From the NCBI RefSeq assembly GCF_013315695.1, contig NZ_CP054353.1: DNA of 64,000 nt; one strand, 5' to 3'. The notes beneath the pieces are model-generated. The model had not been told where the DNA came from. It worked only from the letters and a program-made list of their open reading frames with translations, and did not search any database. Source of the stretch: Escherichia coli. GTDB lineage: Bacteria > Pseudomonadota > Gammaproteobacteria > Enterobacterales > Enterobacteriaceae. A program made the translations under genes and the position numbers. This document shows, piece by piece, positions 2,275 to 30,617 of this stretch; the stretch's first letter is position 1; each line of letters starts with the position of its first letter.

Positions 2275-3657
2275 GTGGCAAAAGCTCCAAAACGCGCCTT
2301 TGTTTGTAATGAATGCGGGGCCGATTATCCGCGCTGGCAGGGGCAGTGCAGTGCCTGTCATGCCTGGAACACCATCACCGAGGTGCGTCTTGCAGCGTCG
2401 CCAACGGTGGCGCGTAACGAGCGTCTCAGCGGCTATGCCGGTAGCGCCGGAGTGGCAAAAGTCCAGAAACTTTCCGACATCAGCCTTGAAGAGCTGCCGC
2501 GTTTTTCCACCGGATTTAAAGAGTTCGACCGCGTATTAGGCGGCGGCGTGGTGCCGGGAAGCGCCATTCTGATTGGCGGTAACCCTGGTGCGGGGAAATC
2601 CACGCTGTTGCTGCAAACGCTGTGCAAACTGGCGCAGCAGATGAAAACGCTGTATGTCACCGGCGAAGAGTCGCTGCAACAGGTGGCAATGCGCGCTCAT
2701 CGCCTTGGCCTGCCGACTGACAATCTTAATATGCTGTCGGAAACCAGCATCGAGCAGATCTGCCTGATTGCCGAAGAAGAGCAACCGAAGCTGATGGTAA
2801 TTGACTCCATCCAGGTGATGCATATGGCGGATGTACAATCATCGCCTGGCAGCGTGGCACAGGTGCGTGAAACGGCGGCTTATCTGACGCGCTTCGCCAA
2901 AACGCGCGGTGTGGCGATTGTCATGGTCGGGCACGTAACCAAAGATGGCTCGCTGGCTGGCCCTAAAGTGCTGGAACACTGTATCGACTGTTCGGTGCTT
3001 TTGGATGGTGATGCCGACTCACGTTTTCGCACCTTACGCAGCCATAAAAACCGCTTCGGCGCGGTGAATGAGCTGGGTGTCTTCGCAATGACCGAGCAGG
3101 GGCTGCGTGAAGTCAGCAACCCTTCGGCAATTTTCTTAAGTCGCGGCGATGAAGTGACCTCCGGTAGCTCAGTGATGGTAGTGTGGGAAGGAACGCGTCC
3201 GCTGCTGGTGGAGATTCAGGCGCTCGTCGATCACTCGATGATGGCGAATCCACGCCGCGTGGCAGTCGGGCTGGAGCAAAACCGTCTGGCAATCCTGCTG
3301 GCGGTGCTTCACCGTCACGGTGGTCTACAAATGGCCGATCAGGATGTGTTTGTTAACGTGGTCGGTGGCGTGAAGGTGACGGAAACCAGTGCCGATTTAG
3401 CGTTACTGCTGGCGATGGTTTCCAGCCTGCGTGACAGACCGCTACCGCAGGATCTGGTGGTGTTTGGTGAAGTCGGGCTGGCAGGGGAGATCCGCCCGGT
3501 GCCCAGCGGCCAGGAACGAATCTCAGAAGCGGCGAAACACGGTTTTCGCCGGGCAATTGTTCCGGCAGCTAACGTGCCGAAAAAAGCGCCGGAAGGGATG
3601 CAGATTTTTGGCGTTAAAAAACTCTCCGACGCGCTTAGCGTGTTCGACGACTTATAA
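2275..3657 (+). CDS. radA: DNA repair protein RadA (Sms)
   Basis: GTG start at 2275 (VAKAPKRAFVCNECGADYPRWQGQC zinc finger), Walker A GNPGAGKST; 460 aa. Confidence 0.92.
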   Translation: MAKAPKRAFVCNECGADYPRWQGQCSACHAWNTITEVRLAASPTVARNERLSGYAGSAGVAKVQKLSDISLEELPRFSTGFKEFDRVLGGGVVPGSAILIGGNPGAGKSTLLLQTLCKLAQQMKTLYVTGEESLQQVAMRAHRLGLPTDNLNMLSETSIEQICLIAEEEQPKLMVIDSIQVMHMADVQSSPGSVAQVRETAAYLTRFAKTRGVAIVMVGHVTKDGSLAGPKVLEHCIDCSVLLDGDADSRFRTLRSHKNRFGAVNELGVFAMTEQGLREVSNPSAIFLSRGDEVTSGSSVMVVWEGTRPLLVEIQALVDHSMMANPRRVAVGLEQNRLAILLAVLHRHGGLQMADQDVFVNVVGGVKVTETSADLALLLAMVSSLRDRPLPQDLVVFGEVGLAGEIRPVPSGQERISEAAKHGFRRAIVPAANVPKKAPEGMQIFGVKKLSDALSVFDDL

Positions 3658-24345: not shown

Positions 24346-25782
24346 TTACTCCTGCGAAACGTCATCCCACGCGTCTGGAGAAAGCTGGCGACCGATCTCC
24401 GGATAACGCAACGGATCAAACACCGGGCGCACGCCGAGTTTACGCTGGCGTAGATAATCACTGGCAATGGTATGAACCACAGGCGAGAGCAGTAATATGG
24501 CGGTCAAATTGGTAATAGCCATGCAGGCCATTATGATATCTGCCAGTTGCCACATCAGCGGAAGACTTAGCAAGGTACCGCCGATGACCGTTGCGAAGGT
24601 GCAGATCCGCAGACACCAGATCGCTTTAGGGTTGTTCAGGCGTAAGAAGAAGAGATTGTTTTCGGCATAAATGTAGTTGGCAACGATGGAGCTGAAGGCA
24701 AACAGAATAACCACGAGGGTAACAAACTCCGCACCCCAGGAACCCATTAACACCCGCATCGCCTTCTGGATAAGCTGAATACCTTCCAGCGGCATGTAGG
24801 TTGTGCCGTTACCCGCCAGTAATATCAGCATGGCGCTTGCCGTACAGATGACCAGGGTGTCGATAAAAATGCCAATCATCTGGACAATTCCTTGCGCTGC
24901 CGGATGCGGAGGCCAGGACGCCGCTGCCGCTGCCGCTGCCGCGTTTGGCGTCGACCCCATTCCTGCCTCATTGGAAAACATACTGCGCTGAAAACCGTTA
25001 GTAATCGCCTGGCTTAAGGTATATCCCGCCGCGCCGCCTGCCGCTTCCTGCCAGCCAAAAGCACTCTCAAAAATAGACCAAATGACGTGGGGAAGTTGCC
25101 CGATATTCATTACGCAAATTACCAGGCTGGTCAGTACCCAGATTATCGCCATCAACGGGACAAACCCCTGCATGAGCCGGGCGACGCCATGAAGACCGCG
25201 AGTGATTGCCAGCAGAGCAAAGACAGCGAGAATAATGCCTGTCACCAGCGGAGGAAAATCAAAAGAAAAACTCAGGGCGCGGGCAACGGCGTTCGCCTGA
25301 ACTCCGCTGAAAATTATGCCGTAAGCGATGAGCAAAAAGAGGGCGAACAGAACGCCCATCCAGCGCATCCCCAGCCCGCGCGCCATATACCATGCCGGTC
25401 CGCCACGAAACTGCCCATTAACGTCACGTTCTTTATAAAGTTGTGCAAGGGAACATTCGGTAAACGAGGTCGCCATGCCGATAAACGCGGCAACCCACAT
25501 CCAGAAGACGGCACCTGGTCCACCGGCGGTAATAGCCAGCGCAACGCCAGCCAGGTTGCCGCTACCCACGCGCGCCGCAAGACTGGTACACAATGACTGA
25601 AATGAGGTTAAACCGCCTGGCTGTGGATGAATGCTATTTTTAAGACTTTTGCCAAACTGGCGGATGTAGCGAAACTGCACAAATCCGGTGCGAAAAGTGA
25701 ACCAACAACCTGCGCCGAAGAGCAGGTAAATCATTACCGATCCCCAAAGGACGCTGTTAATAAAGGAGAAAAAATCTGGCAT
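24346..25782 (-). CDS. yaaJ: alanine/glycine:cation symporter-family transporter YaaJ
   Basis: 478-aa multi-TM ORF; contains an 8-residue Ala tract (NAAAAAAAASWPPHP) encoded by a GCN repeat at about 24918-24941. Confidence 0.9.
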   Translation of the reverse strand: MPDFFSFINSVLWGSVMIYLLFGAGCWFTFRTGFVQFRYIRQFGKSLKNSIHPQPGGLTSFQSLCTSLAARVGSGNLAGVALAITAGGPGAVFWMWVAAFIGMATSFTECSLAQLYKERDVNGQFRGGPAWYMARGLGMRWMGVLFALFLLIAYGIIFSGVQANAVARALSFSFDFPPLVTGIILAVFALLAITRGLHGVARLMQGFVPLMAIIWVLTSLVICVMNIGQLPHVIWSIFESAFGWQEAAGGAAGYTLSQAITNGFQRSMFSNEAGMGSTPNAAAAAAAASWPPHPAAQGIVQMIGIFIDTLVICTASAMLILLAGNGTTYMPLEGIQLIQKAMRVLMGSWGAEFVTLVVILFAFSSIVANYIYAENNLFFLRLNNPKAIWCLRICTFATVIGGTLLSLPLMWQLADIIMACMAITNLTAILLLSPVVHTIASDYLRQRKLGVRPVFDPLRYPEIGRQLSPDAWDDVSQE

Positions 25783-26060: not shown

Positions 26061-27014
26061 ATGACGGACAAATTGACCTCCCTTCGTCAGTACACCACCG
26101 TAGTGGCCGACACTGGGGACATCGCGGCAATGAAGCTGTATCAACCGCAGGATGCCACAACCAACCCTTCTCTCATTCTTAACGCAGCGCAGATTCCGGA
26201 ATACCGTAAGTTGATTGATGATGCTGTCGCCTGGGCGAAACAGCAGAGCAACGATCGCGCGCAGCAGATCGTGGACGCGACCGACAAACTGGCAGTAAAT
26301 ATTGGTCTGGAAATCCTGAAACTGGTTCCGGGCCGTATCTCAACTGAAGTTGATGCGCGTCTTTCCTATGACACCGAAGCGTCAATTGCGAAAGCAAAAC
26401 GCCTGATCAAACTCTACAACGATGCAGGTATTAGCAACGATCGTATTCTGATCAAACTGGCTTCTACCTGGCAGGGTATCCGTGCTGCAGAACAGCTGGA
26501 AAAAGAAGGTATCAACTGTAACCTGACCCTGCTGTTCTCTTTCGCTCAGGCTCGTGCTTGTGCGGAAGCAGGCGTGTTCCTGATCTCGCCATTTGTTGGC
26601 CGTATTCTTGACTGGTACAAAGCGAATACTGATAAGAAAGAGTACGCTCCGGCAGAAGATCCGGGCGTGGTTTCTGTATCTGAAATCTACCAGTACTACA
26701 AAGAGCACGGTTATGAAACCGTGGTGATGGGCGCAAGCTTCCGTAACATCGGCGAAATTCTGGAACTGGCAGGCTGCGACCGTCTGACCATCGCACCGGC
26801 ACTGCTGAAAGAGCTGGCGGAGAGCGAAGGGGCTATCGAACGTAAACTGTCTTACACCGGCGAAGTGAAAGCGCGTCCGGCGCGTATCACTGAGTCCGAG
26901 TTCCTGTGGCAGCACAACCAGGATCCAATGGCAGTAGATAAACTGGCGGAAGGTATCCGTAAGTTTGCTGTTGACCAGGAAAAACTGGAAAAAATGATCG
27001 GCGATCTGCTGTAA
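26061..27014 (+). CDS. talB: transaldolase B
   Basis: ORF track 25998..27014; ATG 26061 ([40 protein letters not shown]...), 317 aa. Confidence 0.97.
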
Positions 27015-27128
27015 TCATTCTTAGCGTGACCGGGAAGTCGGTCACGCTACCTCTTCTGAAGCCTGTCTGTCACTCCCTTCGCAGTGTATCATTCTGTTTA
27101 ACGAGACTGTTTAAACGGAAAAATCTTG

Positions 27129-27716
27129 ATGAATACTTTACGTATTGGCTTAGTTTCCATCTCTGATCGCGCATCCAGCGGCGTTTATCAGGATAAAGGC
27201 ATCCCTGCGCTGGAAGAATGGCTGACATCGGCGCTAACCACGCCGTTTGAACTGGAAACCCGCTTAATCCCCGATGAGCAGGCGATCATCGAGCAAACGT
27301 TGTGTGAGCTGGTGGATGAAATGAGTTGCCATCTGGTGCTCACCACGGGCGGAACTGGCCCGGCGCGTCGTGACGTAACGCCCGATGCGACGCTGGCAGT
27401 AGCGGACCGCGAGATGCCAGGCTTTGGTGAACAGATGCGCCAGATCAGCCTGCATTTTGTACCAACTGCGATCCTTTCGCGTCAGGTGGGTGTGATTCGC
27501 AAACAGGCGCTGATCCTTAACTTACCCGGTCAGCCGAAGTCGATTAAAGAGACGCTGGAAGGTGTAAAGGACGCTGAGGGTAACGTTGTGGTGCACGGTA
27601 TTTTTGCCAGCGTACCGTACTGCATTCAGTTGCTGGAAGGGCCATACGTTGAAACGGCACCGGAAGTGGTTGCTGCATTCAGACCGAAGAGTGCAAGACG
27701 CGAAGTTAGCGAATAA
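27129..27716 (+). CDS. mog: molybdopterin adenylyltransferase Mog
   Basis: 195-aa ORF MNTLRIGLVSISDRASSGVYQDKGIPALEEWL... Confidence 0.95.
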   Translation: MNTLRIGLVSISDRASSGVYQDKGIPALEEWLTSALTTPFELETRLIPDEQAIIEQTLCELVDEMSCHLVLTTGGTGPARRDVTPDATLAVADREMPGFGEQMRQISLHFVPTAILSRQVGVIRKQALILNLPGQPKSIKETLEGVKDAEGNVVVHGIFASVPYCIQLLEGPYVETAPEVVAAFRPKSARREVSE

Positions 27717-27736
27717 AAAAATCCCCCCGGGCGGGG

Positions 27737-29162
27737 TAATGCCAGTCAGTTAAGCAACTGACTGGCTCTTTTTCGGGGCTGTGGGGTATTTCCAGGGCCT
27801 CTCCTTTACCACTCTCGGGAAGGCCCTTTCCCTTCTTGTCGGTAATTTCACAAGTTGTCCCATACTTGCAAGATCGCGCATCAGCTCCGGTATACGTCCC
27901 GGTGAAGCGCCCTGCAATGTCATCAGCATTCTCATCACCATTCCGCATGATTCTGAGAAACTCAGTTGATTCGGCCAGTAACCTTTCAGATGTTCCGCCA
28001 TTTTAATCATCTGATATCTCACCAGATTATAAGCCAGTAAGACACCCCACAGCTCTTGCTCCACAAGCTCCGGTTTTTTACTTCTCAGCGTCAGCCTGCT
28101 CAGTTGCATCGTCTGTTTTATCTCCCTGTATCCCAGTTCGATTTCCCAGCGATGACTGTACAGATCCGCCATTTCTCCTCCGGGGAAGCGCATGGCGTCC
28201 GTCATCGACGTCAGCAGATGGCAGACTTTTCCTTTGCGCGTCACGGTCAGCAGGCGGGCTGTCACTTCATTTCCCAGTCCCGGCCACTTTTTTCGTGCCT
28301 GCGGGCTGGTTTTCAGCTTCACCAGATGATCGCCTTTACCCAGTTTTCTGATCTCTTCATATTGCGCTCCCTTTCTGAGAGGTATCATCCAGTGGCGGTG
28401 TTCTCCCGCCAGGCTCCAGGCATTTAACAGTCCCAGTGAGTAATAACCTTTATCCATTAACGTCAGAGTGTTATCGCCGGTTTGTTCTATAAGTTGCTCA
28501 GCAAGCTCATTTTCGCTGTTCTTCATCGTGCCGAAGGCTGCAGCCGTCAGCAGATGGCTGGTCAGTTCCATCTGGCAGACCATTTTGACCTGCGGGTAGA
28601 GCGCCGGGTTCCCGGCATGTGTCTGGCGGGGGAAGGCTGCATCGTTCTCTGGTGTATCCGGTGTGCGCCAGAACACACCATCGATGGCCAGCAGGGTCAG
28701 GCCGCACCAGTGCGGATGCGGCGTGGCGTTATGCCAGAGCTGCGCTGTTTTCGTGAACACGCGGCGGACAGCCTCACTTCCCAGGCGCTGGCGGGCCTGA
28801 ATAACGGCACTGGGGGCAACGAAGGGGCGATTGCCCGGCAGCATGATGTCCAGGCGATTCACAATCTGGTGAAGAGGTTCTTTACGCTCAAGCGCCATGC
28901 CAACAATACACCAGACCATCATTTCGAGGGGAAGACGGCGCTTGCGTAGCGTTACAGTACCTGATTCGGCAAGGCAACGAGAGATGAGTTCGGGGTCGAG
29001 GTAATCCCCCAGAGAAGTCAGTGGGTTACGCAGAGAATCGTAACGGGATACCAGATCAAGAGCCTGTCCAATGTGCATAAAAAAATCCGGAAACAAGTGA
29101 GCGTTTCCGGATTCTTACACAGCCACTGGATCGGTCAACTGATCCTTAACTGATCGGCATTA
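27737..29162 (-). mobile_element. insertion sequence IS4 (1426 bp), complete, flanked by 12-bp direct repeats ccccgggcgggg
   Basis: Imperfect terminal inverted repeats taatgccagtcagttaag (left) / cttaactgatcggcatta (right); internal 442-aa IS4 transposase; identical 12-mer ccccgggcgggg at 27725-27736 and 29163-29174. Confidence 0.92.
27750..29078 (-). CDS. insG: IS4 transposase InsG
   Basis: ORF track 27750..29096; start at ATG 29078 ([34 protein letters not shown]...), 442 aa, recognised as IS4 transposase. Confidence 0.92.
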
Positions 29163-29188
29163 CCCCGGGCGGGGGGATCTCAAAACAA

Positions 29189-29755
29189 TTAGTGCGATTC
29201 ATCAATCGGCAGAACGGTGCGACCAAACTGCTCGTTCAGCACTTCACCCATCGCCAGATAGATTGCGCTGGCACCGCAGATCAGACCAATCCAGCCGGCA
29301 AAGTGGATGATCGCGGCATTACCGACAATGTTACCGATCGCCAGCAGGGCAAACAGCACGGTCAGGCTAAAGAAAACGAATTGCAGAACGCGTGCGCCTT
29401 TCAGCGTGCCGAAGAACATAAACAGCGTAAATACGCCCCACAGACCCAGGTAGACACCAAGGAACTGTGCATTTGGCGCATCGGTCAGACCCAGTTTCGG
29501 CATCAGCAGAATCGCAACCAGCGTCAGCCAGAAAGAACCGTAAGAGGTGAATGCGGTTAAACCGAAAGTGTTGCCTTTTTTGTACTCCAGCAGACCAGCA
29601 AAAATTTGCGCGATGCCGCCGTAGAAAATGCCCATTGCAAGAATAATACCGTCAAGAGCGAAATAACCCACGTTGTGCAGGTTAAGCAGAATGGTGGTCA
29701 TGCCGAAGCCCATCAAGCCCAGCGGTGCCGGATTAGCCAACTTAGTGTTGCCCAT
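29189..29755 (-). CDS. satP: succinate-acetate/proton symporter SatP (YaaH)
   Basis: 188-aa 6-TM ORF MGNTKLANPAPLGLMGFGMTTILLNLHNVGYF... Confidence 0.95.
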   Translation of the reverse strand: MGNTKLANPAPLGLMGFGMTTILLNLHNVGYFALDGIILAMGIFYGGIAQIFAGLLEYKKGNTFGLTAFTSYGSFWLTLVAILLMPKLGLTDAPNAQFLGVYLGLWGVFTLFMFFGTLKGARVLQFVFFSLTVLFALLAIGNIVGNAAIIHFAGWIGLICGASAIYLAMGEVLNEQFGRTVLPIDESH

Positions 29756-29903
29756 AATTCCTCAAAAATCATCATCGAATGAATGGTGAAATAATTTCCC
29801 TGAATAACTGTAGTGTTTTCAGGGCGCGGCATAATAATCAGCCAGTGGGGCAGTGTCTACGATCTTTTGAAGGGAAAATGAAAATTTTCCCCGGTTTCCG
29901 GTA

Positions 29904-30617
29904 TCAGACCTGAGTGGCACTAACCATCCGGCGCAGGCAGGCGATTTGCAGTACGGCTGGAATCGTCACGCGATAGGCGCTGCCGCTGACCGCTTTAACC
30001 CCATTTAGTGCCGCGCCTACAGGGCCTCCCAGCCCCGCGCCGCGAAGCAAACCATGCCCAAGTACGCTCATTGCTGCGTGGGTGCGTAAAATGCGGGTCA
30101 ATTGGCTGGAAAGCAAATGCGACACGCCTTTTGCCAATAATTTGTCTTTCATCAGCAGCGGCAGCAGCTCTTCCAGCTCATTCACCCTGGCATCGACCGC
30201 GTGCAGAAACTCCTGCTTATGTTCCTCGTCCATTTTCTTCCAGGTATTACGCAGAAATTGTTCCAGTAACTGTTGCTCAATTTCAAACGTAGACATCTCT
30301 TTGTCGGCTTTCAGCTTCAATCGTTTTGAAACATCGAGCAAAATGGCCCGATACAATTTACCGTGTCCGCGCAGTTTGTTGGCGATACTATCGCCACCAA
30401 AATGTTGTAATTCTCCGGCAATCAGCTGCCAGTTGCGGCGGTGTTGCTCGGGATGTCCTTCCATCGATTTAAACAGTTCGTTGCGCATCAGTACGCTGGA
30501 GAGGCGAGTTTTGCCTTTTTCATTATGAGTGAGCAGCCGGGCGAAATTTGCCAATTGTTCCTCACTACAATGCTGGAGAAAATCCAGATCTGAATCATTC
30601 AGGTAATTAACATTCAT
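29904..30617 (-). CDS. yaaW: UPF0174 protein YaaW
   Basis: 237-aa ORF MNVNYLNDSDLDFLQHCSEEQLANFARLLTHNEKGKTRLSS... Confidence 0.9.
   Translation of the reverse strand: MNVNYLNDSDLDFLQHCSEEQLANFARLLTHNEKGKTRLSSVLMRNELFKSMEGHPEQHRRNWQLIAGELQHFGGDSIANKLRGHGKLYRAILLDVSKRLKLKADKEMSTFEIEQQLLEQFLRNTWKKMDEEHKQEFLHAVDARVNELEELLPLLMKDKLLAKGVSHLLSSQLTRILRTHAAMSVLGHGLLRGAGLGGPVGAALNGVKAVSGSAYRVTIPAVLQIACLRRMVSATQV

Follow-up and report, generated by a model that had tools for sequence, protein, structure and literature searches.

An IS4 element in the mog/satP hairpin of Escherichia coli and the target preference of IS4

Layout of the locus and identity of the element

The window, by which we mean the whole 64-kb stretch of Escherichia coli DNA that was analysed, contains an insertion sequence between the genes mog and satP. 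The features of the region are as follows.

27129..27716, + strand: mog (molybdopterin adenylyltransferase) coding sequence, intact (open reading frame list; RefSeq annotation of the identical region L001, CDS 2543-3130)
27714-27716, + strand: mog stop codon, TAA
27715..27721, + strand: A7 run, equal to T7 on the minus strand, followed by TCC on the + strand (sequence)
27725..27736: left 12-bp target-site duplication CCCCGGGCGGGG, the hairpin apex (4 bp, loop, 4 bp)
27737..29162, - strand: IS4, complete, 1426 bp, with the transposase in the same direction as satP
27737..27754: IRR TAATGCCAGTCAGTTAAG, terminal inverted repeat at the transposase 3' end
27741..27773, + strand: putative inward-facing terminator-like element at the IRR end (terminator scan, fold and score)
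27750..29078, - strand: IS4 transposase, InsG-type, 442 aa from ATG 29078 (open reading frame list)
29079..29113, - strand: putative inward-facing terminator-like element at the IRL end (fold and score)
29111..29138, - strand: candidate promoter-like site for the transposase (consensus scan)
29145..29162: IRL, the reverse complement of TAATGCCGATCAGTTAAG, terminal inverted repeat at the transposase 5' end
29163..29174: right 12-bp target-site duplication CCCCGGGCGGGG, followed by GGATC
29189..29755, - strand: satP (acetate/succinate transporter) coding sequence, intact (open reading frame list, RefSeq annotation)

The span 27725-29174, to which an earlier sequence-only reading had drawn attention, thus corresponds to repeat, insertion sequence and repeat. 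The satP gene of the window carries a private G184D substitution (T at window position 29202). When 26800-30200 was scanned against Rfam with a permissive cut-off, a single chance-level match came back, outside the feature; no known RNA is involved.

The terminal inverted repeats are 18 bp long and match at 16 of 18 positions (TAATGCCAGTCAGTTAAG versus TAATGCCGATCAGTTAAG). The duplication is perfect, identity between the two flanks ending at the edges of the 12-mers, and its length of 12 bp agrees with the 11-13 bp, or roughly one helical turn, typical of IS4 and compares with 11-14 bp in other IS4 copies. The 442-aa open reading frame on the minus strand is unbroken; PGAP places its start at TTG 29096, which gives 448 aa. 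The transposase possesses a YREK motif (Y-x2-R-x3-E-x6-K) beginning at residue 307 (Y307), and the Pfam domains recorded for an identical protein are PF13006 (Nterm_IS4) and PF01609 (DDE_Tnp_1). The element differs from other IS4 copies at 0-10 nt (99.7-100% identity), with fully identical copies present in other genomes; 4 of its 1426 positions distinguish it from the K-12 insG-type allele. RefSeq annotation at loci L001-L004 reads "IS4-like element IS4 family transposase". The sequence-only reading had named the element IS4 and had reported a 12-bp duplication. Length, inverted repeats, duplication, transposase and near-identity to the insG-type allele all agree with this, and identical copies of CCCCGGGCGGGG were found at 27725-27736 and 29163-29174. 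Since a perfect 12-bp direct repeat surrounds a 1426-bp element 99.7-100% identical to known IS4 copies, chance is excluded, and the element is an intact classical E. coli IS4 (IS4 family, IS4 subgroup). No second IS4 end was found within the 64-kb window.

The empty site and predicted transcription after the insertion

Removal of the insertion sequence and one repeat gives GCGAATAAAAAAATCCCCCCGGGCGGGGGGATCTCAAAAC, in which an 8-bp stem (ATCCCCCC/GGGGGGAT) encloses the loop GGGC. Folded as RNA, this hairpin reaches -17.5 kcal/mol when read in the mog sense; in the satP sense the value is -19.1 kcal/mol. The reconstructed 318-bp empty site was at least 80% covered in one place in 5408 of 5426 complete E. 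coli genomes. Strain FDAARGOS_497 is identical to the reconstruction over 318 bp save for one SNP private to the window, and MG1655 has the same 34-bp mog-satP spacer with the loop GAGC and without the insertion sequence. The earlier description of the empty site as a perfect GC hairpin after an A-run was thereby upheld, as was the suggestion that MG1655 lacks IS4 at this position; the comparison with other E. coli genomes, which had been proposed as a check, yielded exact reconstructions for both loop alleles.

In the satP-sense RNA a stem of 8-11 bp is followed by U7 (GAUCCCCCCGCCCGGGGGGAUUUUUUUAUU), and a rough d'Aubenton-Carafa-type score for this arrangement is +45. The U-tract is the A7 run at 27715..27721, which is at the same time the IRR-side T-tract, 3 bp away from the duplication. 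The mog-sense tail after the hairpin is AUCUCAAAAC, without a U-tract, and scores -32 on the same rough scale. By sequence, the hairpin would be a canonical intrinsic (Rho-independent) terminator for satP only; mog transcripts may also end there, through the hairpin alone or through polymerase collision. The sequence therefore does not support the proposal of a bidirectional terminator, the U-tract being present in the satP direction only. IS4 had also been placed in the stem of this terminator. The hairpin is indeed split, but the staggered cuts flank its apex, with 4 bp of each arm plus the loop duplicated, so the insertion is not simply in the stem.

Each copy of the duplication taken alone forms a 4-bp mini-hairpin (-5.8 kcal/mol) without an adjacent U-tract on the gene-proximal side. 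The insertion would thus have split a strong satP-sense terminator, with only a 4-bp mini-hairpin left beside satP. Both ends of IS4 carry hairpins which face inward and resemble terminators. At the IRR end there is an 11-bp stem, GCCAGTCAGTT-AAGC-AACTGACTGGC (27741-27766), followed on the + strand by TCTTTTT; it was flagged by the terminator scan with a rough score of about +1, which is borderline. A mog-sense RNA entering IS4 would read GCCAGUCAGUU-AAGC-AACUGACUGGC and then UCUUUUU (27741-27773), so that mog-sense transcripts would meet this hairpin and U-rich tail approximately 30-35 nt into the element. At the IRL end the stem AAUCCGGAAAC/GUUUCCGGAUU (29113-29086) is followed by U7 (29085-29079), which abuts the transposase ATG. 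In a satP-sense RNA this region would read AAUCCGGAAAC-GCUCACUU-GUUUCCGGAUU and continue U-rich up to the transposase AUG (29113-29079), and read-through from satP would meet it some 80-85 nt into the element, just upstream of the start codon. The IRL-end hairpin was folded and scored by hand, the consensus terminator scan having missed it by running the stem into the T-run; its score was +6 to +24, varying with the stem boundaries chosen. Both end hairpins are kept in the three IS4 alleles sampled, and the sole nearby change, at IS position 68, falls in a loop.

A promoter-like site, TTGACC, 16 nt and TG-AAGAAT (29138-29111), matches the consensus at 9 of 12 positions. The start predicted from it lies inside the 5' arm of the IRL-end hairpin, so that IS4's own transcripts would be made without the terminator stem, and only read-through from outside, on the satP side, would be terminated by that hairpin. 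Transposase-sense transcripts leaving IS4 would meet the residual mini-hairpin followed by the original U7, an exit structure which is weak (score about -5). The sequence-only reading had expected truncated stems, altered termination and possible read-through. The original terminator would be destroyed, with only the 4-bp mini-hairpins left, but read-through is predicted to be short because of the inward-facing terminator-like hairpins at both ends of IS4. For mog and satP the overall change is probably slight: 3' untranslated regions longer by about 35 nt (mog) and 85 nt (satP), and unaltered coding sequences.

Carriers of the insertion and target preference of IS4

The 5426 complete E. coli genomes were screened with a 300-bp probe across the mog/IS4 junction, and only four covered it fully: AF3 (UK, blood), MSB1_4I (Australia, rectal swab), E1 (China) and SCU-313 (USA, rectal swab). 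The window, AF3 and MSB1_4I are near-identical to one another, while E1 and SCU-313 share another flank haplotype, the two groups having about 45 flank differences in 4.9 kb. Both repeats in E1 and SCU-313 read CCCCGAGCGGGG rather than CCCCGGGCGGGG (loop GAGC instead of GGGC). When the empty site was reconstructed for E1, many uninterrupted genomes matched it at 100% identity across 800 bp, and GAGC is therefore merely the local loop allele. The IS4 of E1 is the insG-type allele, 4 nt from that of the window.

Flank haplotype, IS4 allele and both duplication copies all set the two carrier groups apart. We take this to mean that IS4 arrived twice, in independent events that hit one and the same nucleotide with an identical 12-bp stagger and a common orientation. 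This agreement in orientation is not significant. That all four carriers descend from one insertion, spread by homologous recombination, would account for the likeness in position, orientation and duplication length, but we regard it as extremely improbable. A transferred segment would bring its own duplication and IS allele, whereas here the loop allele in both repeats is the local one, four sites distinguish the IS4 alleles, and the flanks are those of the local uninterrupted haplotype right up to the insertion sequence. The insertion had been put forward as a useful strain marker. It is rare, but homoplasic, and because the site has been occupied twice independently it is unsuitable as the sole basis for assigning a lineage.

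Of the 5426 complete genomes, 2686 contain IS4; the median copy number is one and the highest is 32. In AF3 and MSB1_4I, the closest relatives of the window, the junction probe matched 18 places each, which indicates an IS4 expansion in the lineage of the window comparable to that in IAI39 and CE10 (15-16 IS4 places). The approximately 18 copies in these sister genomes suggest recent IS4 activity, and the copy in the window is probably active.

IS4 sites were collected from a few dozen genomes containing three IS4 alleles. Sites L005-L008 came from BLAST and are flank-biased, since they were ranked by similarity to the flank of the window; sites L009-L064 came from contigs encoding exact IS4 transposase variants and were chosen blind to flank sequence. 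In the orientation of the transposase, the typical surroundings are an A-rich run, three mostly G/C positions, the duplication of 11-14 bp, three mostly G/C positions and a T-run. The duplication is usually the top of a GC hairpin, centred on its apex. IS4-occupied 3' regions include adhE/tdk, eno, opgH/yceK, glmS, mukB/ldtD, aroA/ycaL, bamD/raiA, rpoD/mug, degS/mdh, ssb/yjcB, finO, lpxM/pyk, fumB/fumC and several phage genes, and these are intrinsic terminators. The sequence-only reading had treated the location in a hairpin as incidental; the 29 flank-unbiased sites show instead that a hairpin is the preferred type of target of IS4.

A core hairpin with a dG of -10 kcal/mol or lower, together with at least six T in the ten bases from +3, was found at 16 of the first 21 flank-unbiased junction pairs and at 21 of 20000 random positions in the same DNA (0.1%). 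In a position matrix of 29 unbiased combinations of site and orientation, 27 have A at -6 and 28 have it at -5. T occupies +5 and +6 in 26 and 28 of the 29, and positions +4 to +8 in 23-28; positions -3 to -1 and +1 to +3 are mostly G/C. The T-tract begins 3 bp beyond the duplication at 24 sites, the A-tract ends 3 bp before it at 24, and both hold at 19; the A-tract is absent at 5 of 29. The tracts lie 3 bp from the duplication regardless of its length, which follows the tract spacing: a spacing of 18 bp goes with a duplication of 11-12 bp, 19 with 12-13 and 20 with 13-14. At several terminators (adhE/tdk, eno, opgH/yceK, bamD/raiA and a phage hairpin) IS4 copies lie in opposite orientations or have duplications slightly offset from one another, from which we conclude that independent insertions have occurred there repeatedly. 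Five intragenic copies (in bcsG, a GH31 gene, a TonB-dependent receptor gene, a DUF4049 gene and an hsd locus) keep the tracts without real hairpins.

These observations bear on whether the location merely reflects survivorship, that is, near-random insertion followed by purifying selection which spares harmless intergenic copies. Intergenic 3' regions are the least harmful locations for an insertion sequence, and a few intragenic IS4 copies do exist. The intragenic copies too follow the tract rule, however, and survivorship explains neither the nucleotide-exact recurrence (twice at mog/satP, several times at adhE/tdk, eno and opgH/yceK), nor the fixed 3-bp distance of the tracts, nor the excess of terminator-like sites over random positions. 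We therefore hold it to be very unlikely.

A second alternative is that IS4 recognises structure rather than duplex sequence, for example a cruciform extruded from the duplex, a hairpin formed by single-stranded DNA at a replication fork, or a paused or terminating RNA polymerase, the A and T tracts being only correlates of terminators. A strong GC hairpin (dG of -10 or lower) is present at 19 of the 29 unbiased sites, usually with the duplication centred on the apex, and used sites are richer in hairpins than are loose matches in the window. At the remaining 10 sites, including those in bcsG, the GH31 gene, the TonB-dependent receptor and the DUF4049 gene, there is little hairpin potential and the tracts are nevertheless 3 bp off. 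The hairpin enrichment is also confounded by selection: the loose A/T-tract pattern has about 20 unoccupied matches in the ancestral window, of which about 4 are hairpins and most are non-hairpin matches inside genes, where insertions would be purged. On this evidence we consider recognition of structure unlikely, though less so than survivorship. The same 20 or so unoccupied matches mean that a simple tract rule is insufficient; the sites must be shaped as well by the GC-rich palindromic core or its hairpin, or else by selection against intragenic insertions.

At mog/satP the IRR side of the site reads GGA and then T7, with the T-tract 3 bp beyond the duplication, as the rule predicts. On the IRL side the flank ends in TTTTGAGATCC, with 2 A in 5, which falls short of an A-tract. 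As read from its sequence, mog/satP is thus an atypical half-site containing the T-tract half only. Half-sites occur both ways, with a T-tract only, at IRR, at about 6-8 sites and an A-tract only, at IRL, at 3. The A...T pattern is its own reverse complement, and bidirectional terminators are occupied in both orientations. A strict orientation specificity, with the T-tract always at the 3' end of the transposase gene, was considered and was weakened as more sites were added. BLAST matches running 23-31 bp past the end of the element had raised a longer element or a carried-over flank as candidates; they represent similarity between independent target sites (AATAAAAAA plus GC) and were left out of the statistics as flank-biased.

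The simplest reading of these sites is that the pattern recognised by the IS4 transpososome is a pseudo-palindrome in duplex DNA, and that terminators are its main natural carriers. IS4 would join its ends to the target at points separated by 11-14 bp, each about 3 bp inward of a tract (A on one side, T on the other), with a core between the tracts that is G/C-rich and usually palindromic; in bacterial genomes such a succession of A-tract, core and T-tract would be supplied mostly by intrinsic terminators. The mog/satP hairpin would offer the T-tract half (T7 on the satP strand), at a position used twice independently. We consider it very likely that a complete, probably active IS4 inserted in the mog/satP hairpin through its own target preference, entering this GC-rich structure 9 bp past the mog stop codon and leaving both genes intact.

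A pseudo-palindromic target consensus for IS4, AAA-N(~20)-TTT, dates from the 1980s. Mayaux and co-workers are said to have described, in 1984, an IS4 insertion in the pheST attenuator. The terminator of this attenuator, AAAGCCTCCCAGTGGAGGCTTTTTTT, fits the tract and core pattern found here. High target specificity residing in the flanking "arms" has been published for IS4 (PMC2266710), and the work of De Palmenaer et al. supports the explanation preferred here.

Significance and comparison with known systems

This is a known element behaving as expected. For the genome of the window the insertion is of little consequence, both genes being intact and the effect probably limited to longer 3' untranslated regions. 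More generally, IS4 is to be expected in intrinsic terminators, which should allow annotators to predict and interpret IS4 junctions; its hotspots carry a risk of homoplasy in typing based on insertion sequences. The A-tract/T-tract rule is a simple sequence rule that can be tested experimentally.

Perhaps IS4 is a dedicated terminator-homing element, in which three features act together: a duplication length (11-14 bp) set by the tract spacing, with each end about 3 bp inside an A- or T-tract; inward-facing terminators at both ends in place of the one that is split; and the reuse of the target's U-tract behind the transposase gene. We put this forward tentatively and think it rather doubtful. 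If true, such a design would leave insertions almost without cost and could account for the growth of IS4 to 15-30 copies in some genomes. In the searchable, openly accessible literature none of these features was found described, nor any explicit statement that terminators are the targets of IS4, and the idea would be of moderate interest if it is not already contained in older work.

The closest known system is the IS4 of E. coli K-12 (insG), the founding member of the IS4 family, with the same 1426 bp, 18-bp inverted repeats, 11-14-bp duplications and 442-aa DDE/YREK transposase. The copy in the window occupies another chromosomal site, absent from MG1655, and is a minor allele; nothing essential differs. 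Hallet and colleagues reportedly found in 1994 that IS231A, also of the IS4 family, favours targets in which A/T tracts border a short, symmetric core rich in G/C. This reported preference resembles the succession of A-tract, S3, core, S3 and T-tract described here for IS4, although IS231A differs in subgroup, core, duplication length and hosts.

Other elements are also associated with terminators. Tn7 inserts at the glmS terminator through binding of TnsD to glmS coding DNA, and in one genome (L013) IS4 lies in this same terminator. Group IIC introns recognise the stem-loop as a nucleic-acid structure and insert after it. Unlike these introns and Tn7, IS4 moves by DDE cut-and-paste transposition into the apex of the hairpin, apparently guided by duplex sequence. 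The insertion sequences that target REP or BIME elements (IS1397, ISKpn1, ISRm22 and ISPpu9/10) likewise home to extragenic palindromes. Among them ISRm22 is itself an IS4-family member, all copies of which in Sinorhizobium meliloti 1021 lie in REPs (PMC1525189). These elements target one repeated family, whereas IS4 targets unrelated terminators that have in common only the A/T tracts and a G/C-rich core.

In Tn10 and Tn5 (IS10 and IS50), activation by transcription entering from outside is held in check by a structure which the element itself carries close to the start of the transposase gene. The arrangement at the IRL end of IS4 is alike in concept, but its sequence looks like an intrinsic terminator (hairpin and U7) and not like a structure that would sequester the ribosome-binding site.

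Elements and repeats at the mog/satP hairpin

The GC-rich hairpin between the convergent genes mog and satP, occupied in the window by IS4, carries a different element in a derivative of E. coli O127:H6 E2348/69 (comparison locus L040). In this locus ISEc13 lies in the apex of the hairpin (900-2520; window equivalent 27722-29177), with its transposase on the mog strand and an 8-bp duplication, CCGAGCGG. ISEc13 is an IS4-family element distinct from IS4, and its ends are Tn5-like (CTGTCTCTTATACACAAAT). One hairpin has therefore been struck by two different elements.

In some genomes the hairpin is followed immediately by approximately 170 bp of REP/BIME-like palindromes, as in FDAARGOS_1256 (L039, 455-640) and strain N21 (BLAST match H49), beyond which lies a degenerate second copy of the hairpin, TCCCTTCGAGCGGGGGGAGC. 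The hairpin loop allele in these genomes is AGGC.

IS4 copies and flanking differences among related loci

Two of the other genomes with IS4 at mog/satP have copies annotated with disruptions. That of MSB1_4I (L002) differs from the window copy at two nucleotides and is annotated with an internal stop, and that of SCU-313 (L004), 1430 bp in length, is annotated as frameshifted and possesses many small indels, which look like homopolymer assembly error.

Two further differences set the window apart from the loci compared. Position 29202 is T, where AF3, MSB1_4I, E1, SCU-313, FDAARGOS_497 and MG1655 all have C; this results in SatP G184D (...LPIDESH vs ...LPIGESH), five residues before the C-terminus. 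An additional GCCGCT at 24920-24925, not present in the four related loci, is, judged by its position, an in-frame two-codon insertion within yaaJ (alanine/glycine:cation symporter).

IS4 copy number, recombination and the glmS terminator

The number of IS4 copies is very unequal among complete E. coli genomes: half have none, and the median among carriers is one copy. Lineage-specific expansions are seen in AF3 and MSB1_4I (approximately 18 copies each), CE10 (16), IAI39 (15) and further genomes, the highest count being 32.

Comparison of loci L015 and L016 with L010 and L028 (GCA_052122925.1, about 1.879-1.905 Mb) revealed two IS4 copies without matching duplications, each flanked by one mukB/ldtD half-site and one aroA/ycaL half-site. 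These unmatched halves are the signature of an inversion of approximately 22-26 kb, by recombination between two IS4 copies.

IS4 also occupies the glmS terminator in L013 (GCA_000714895.1), approximately 25 bp past the glmS stop codon, with the duplication CACCGGTCGGCAG. Tn7 inserts in this same region, its attTn7.
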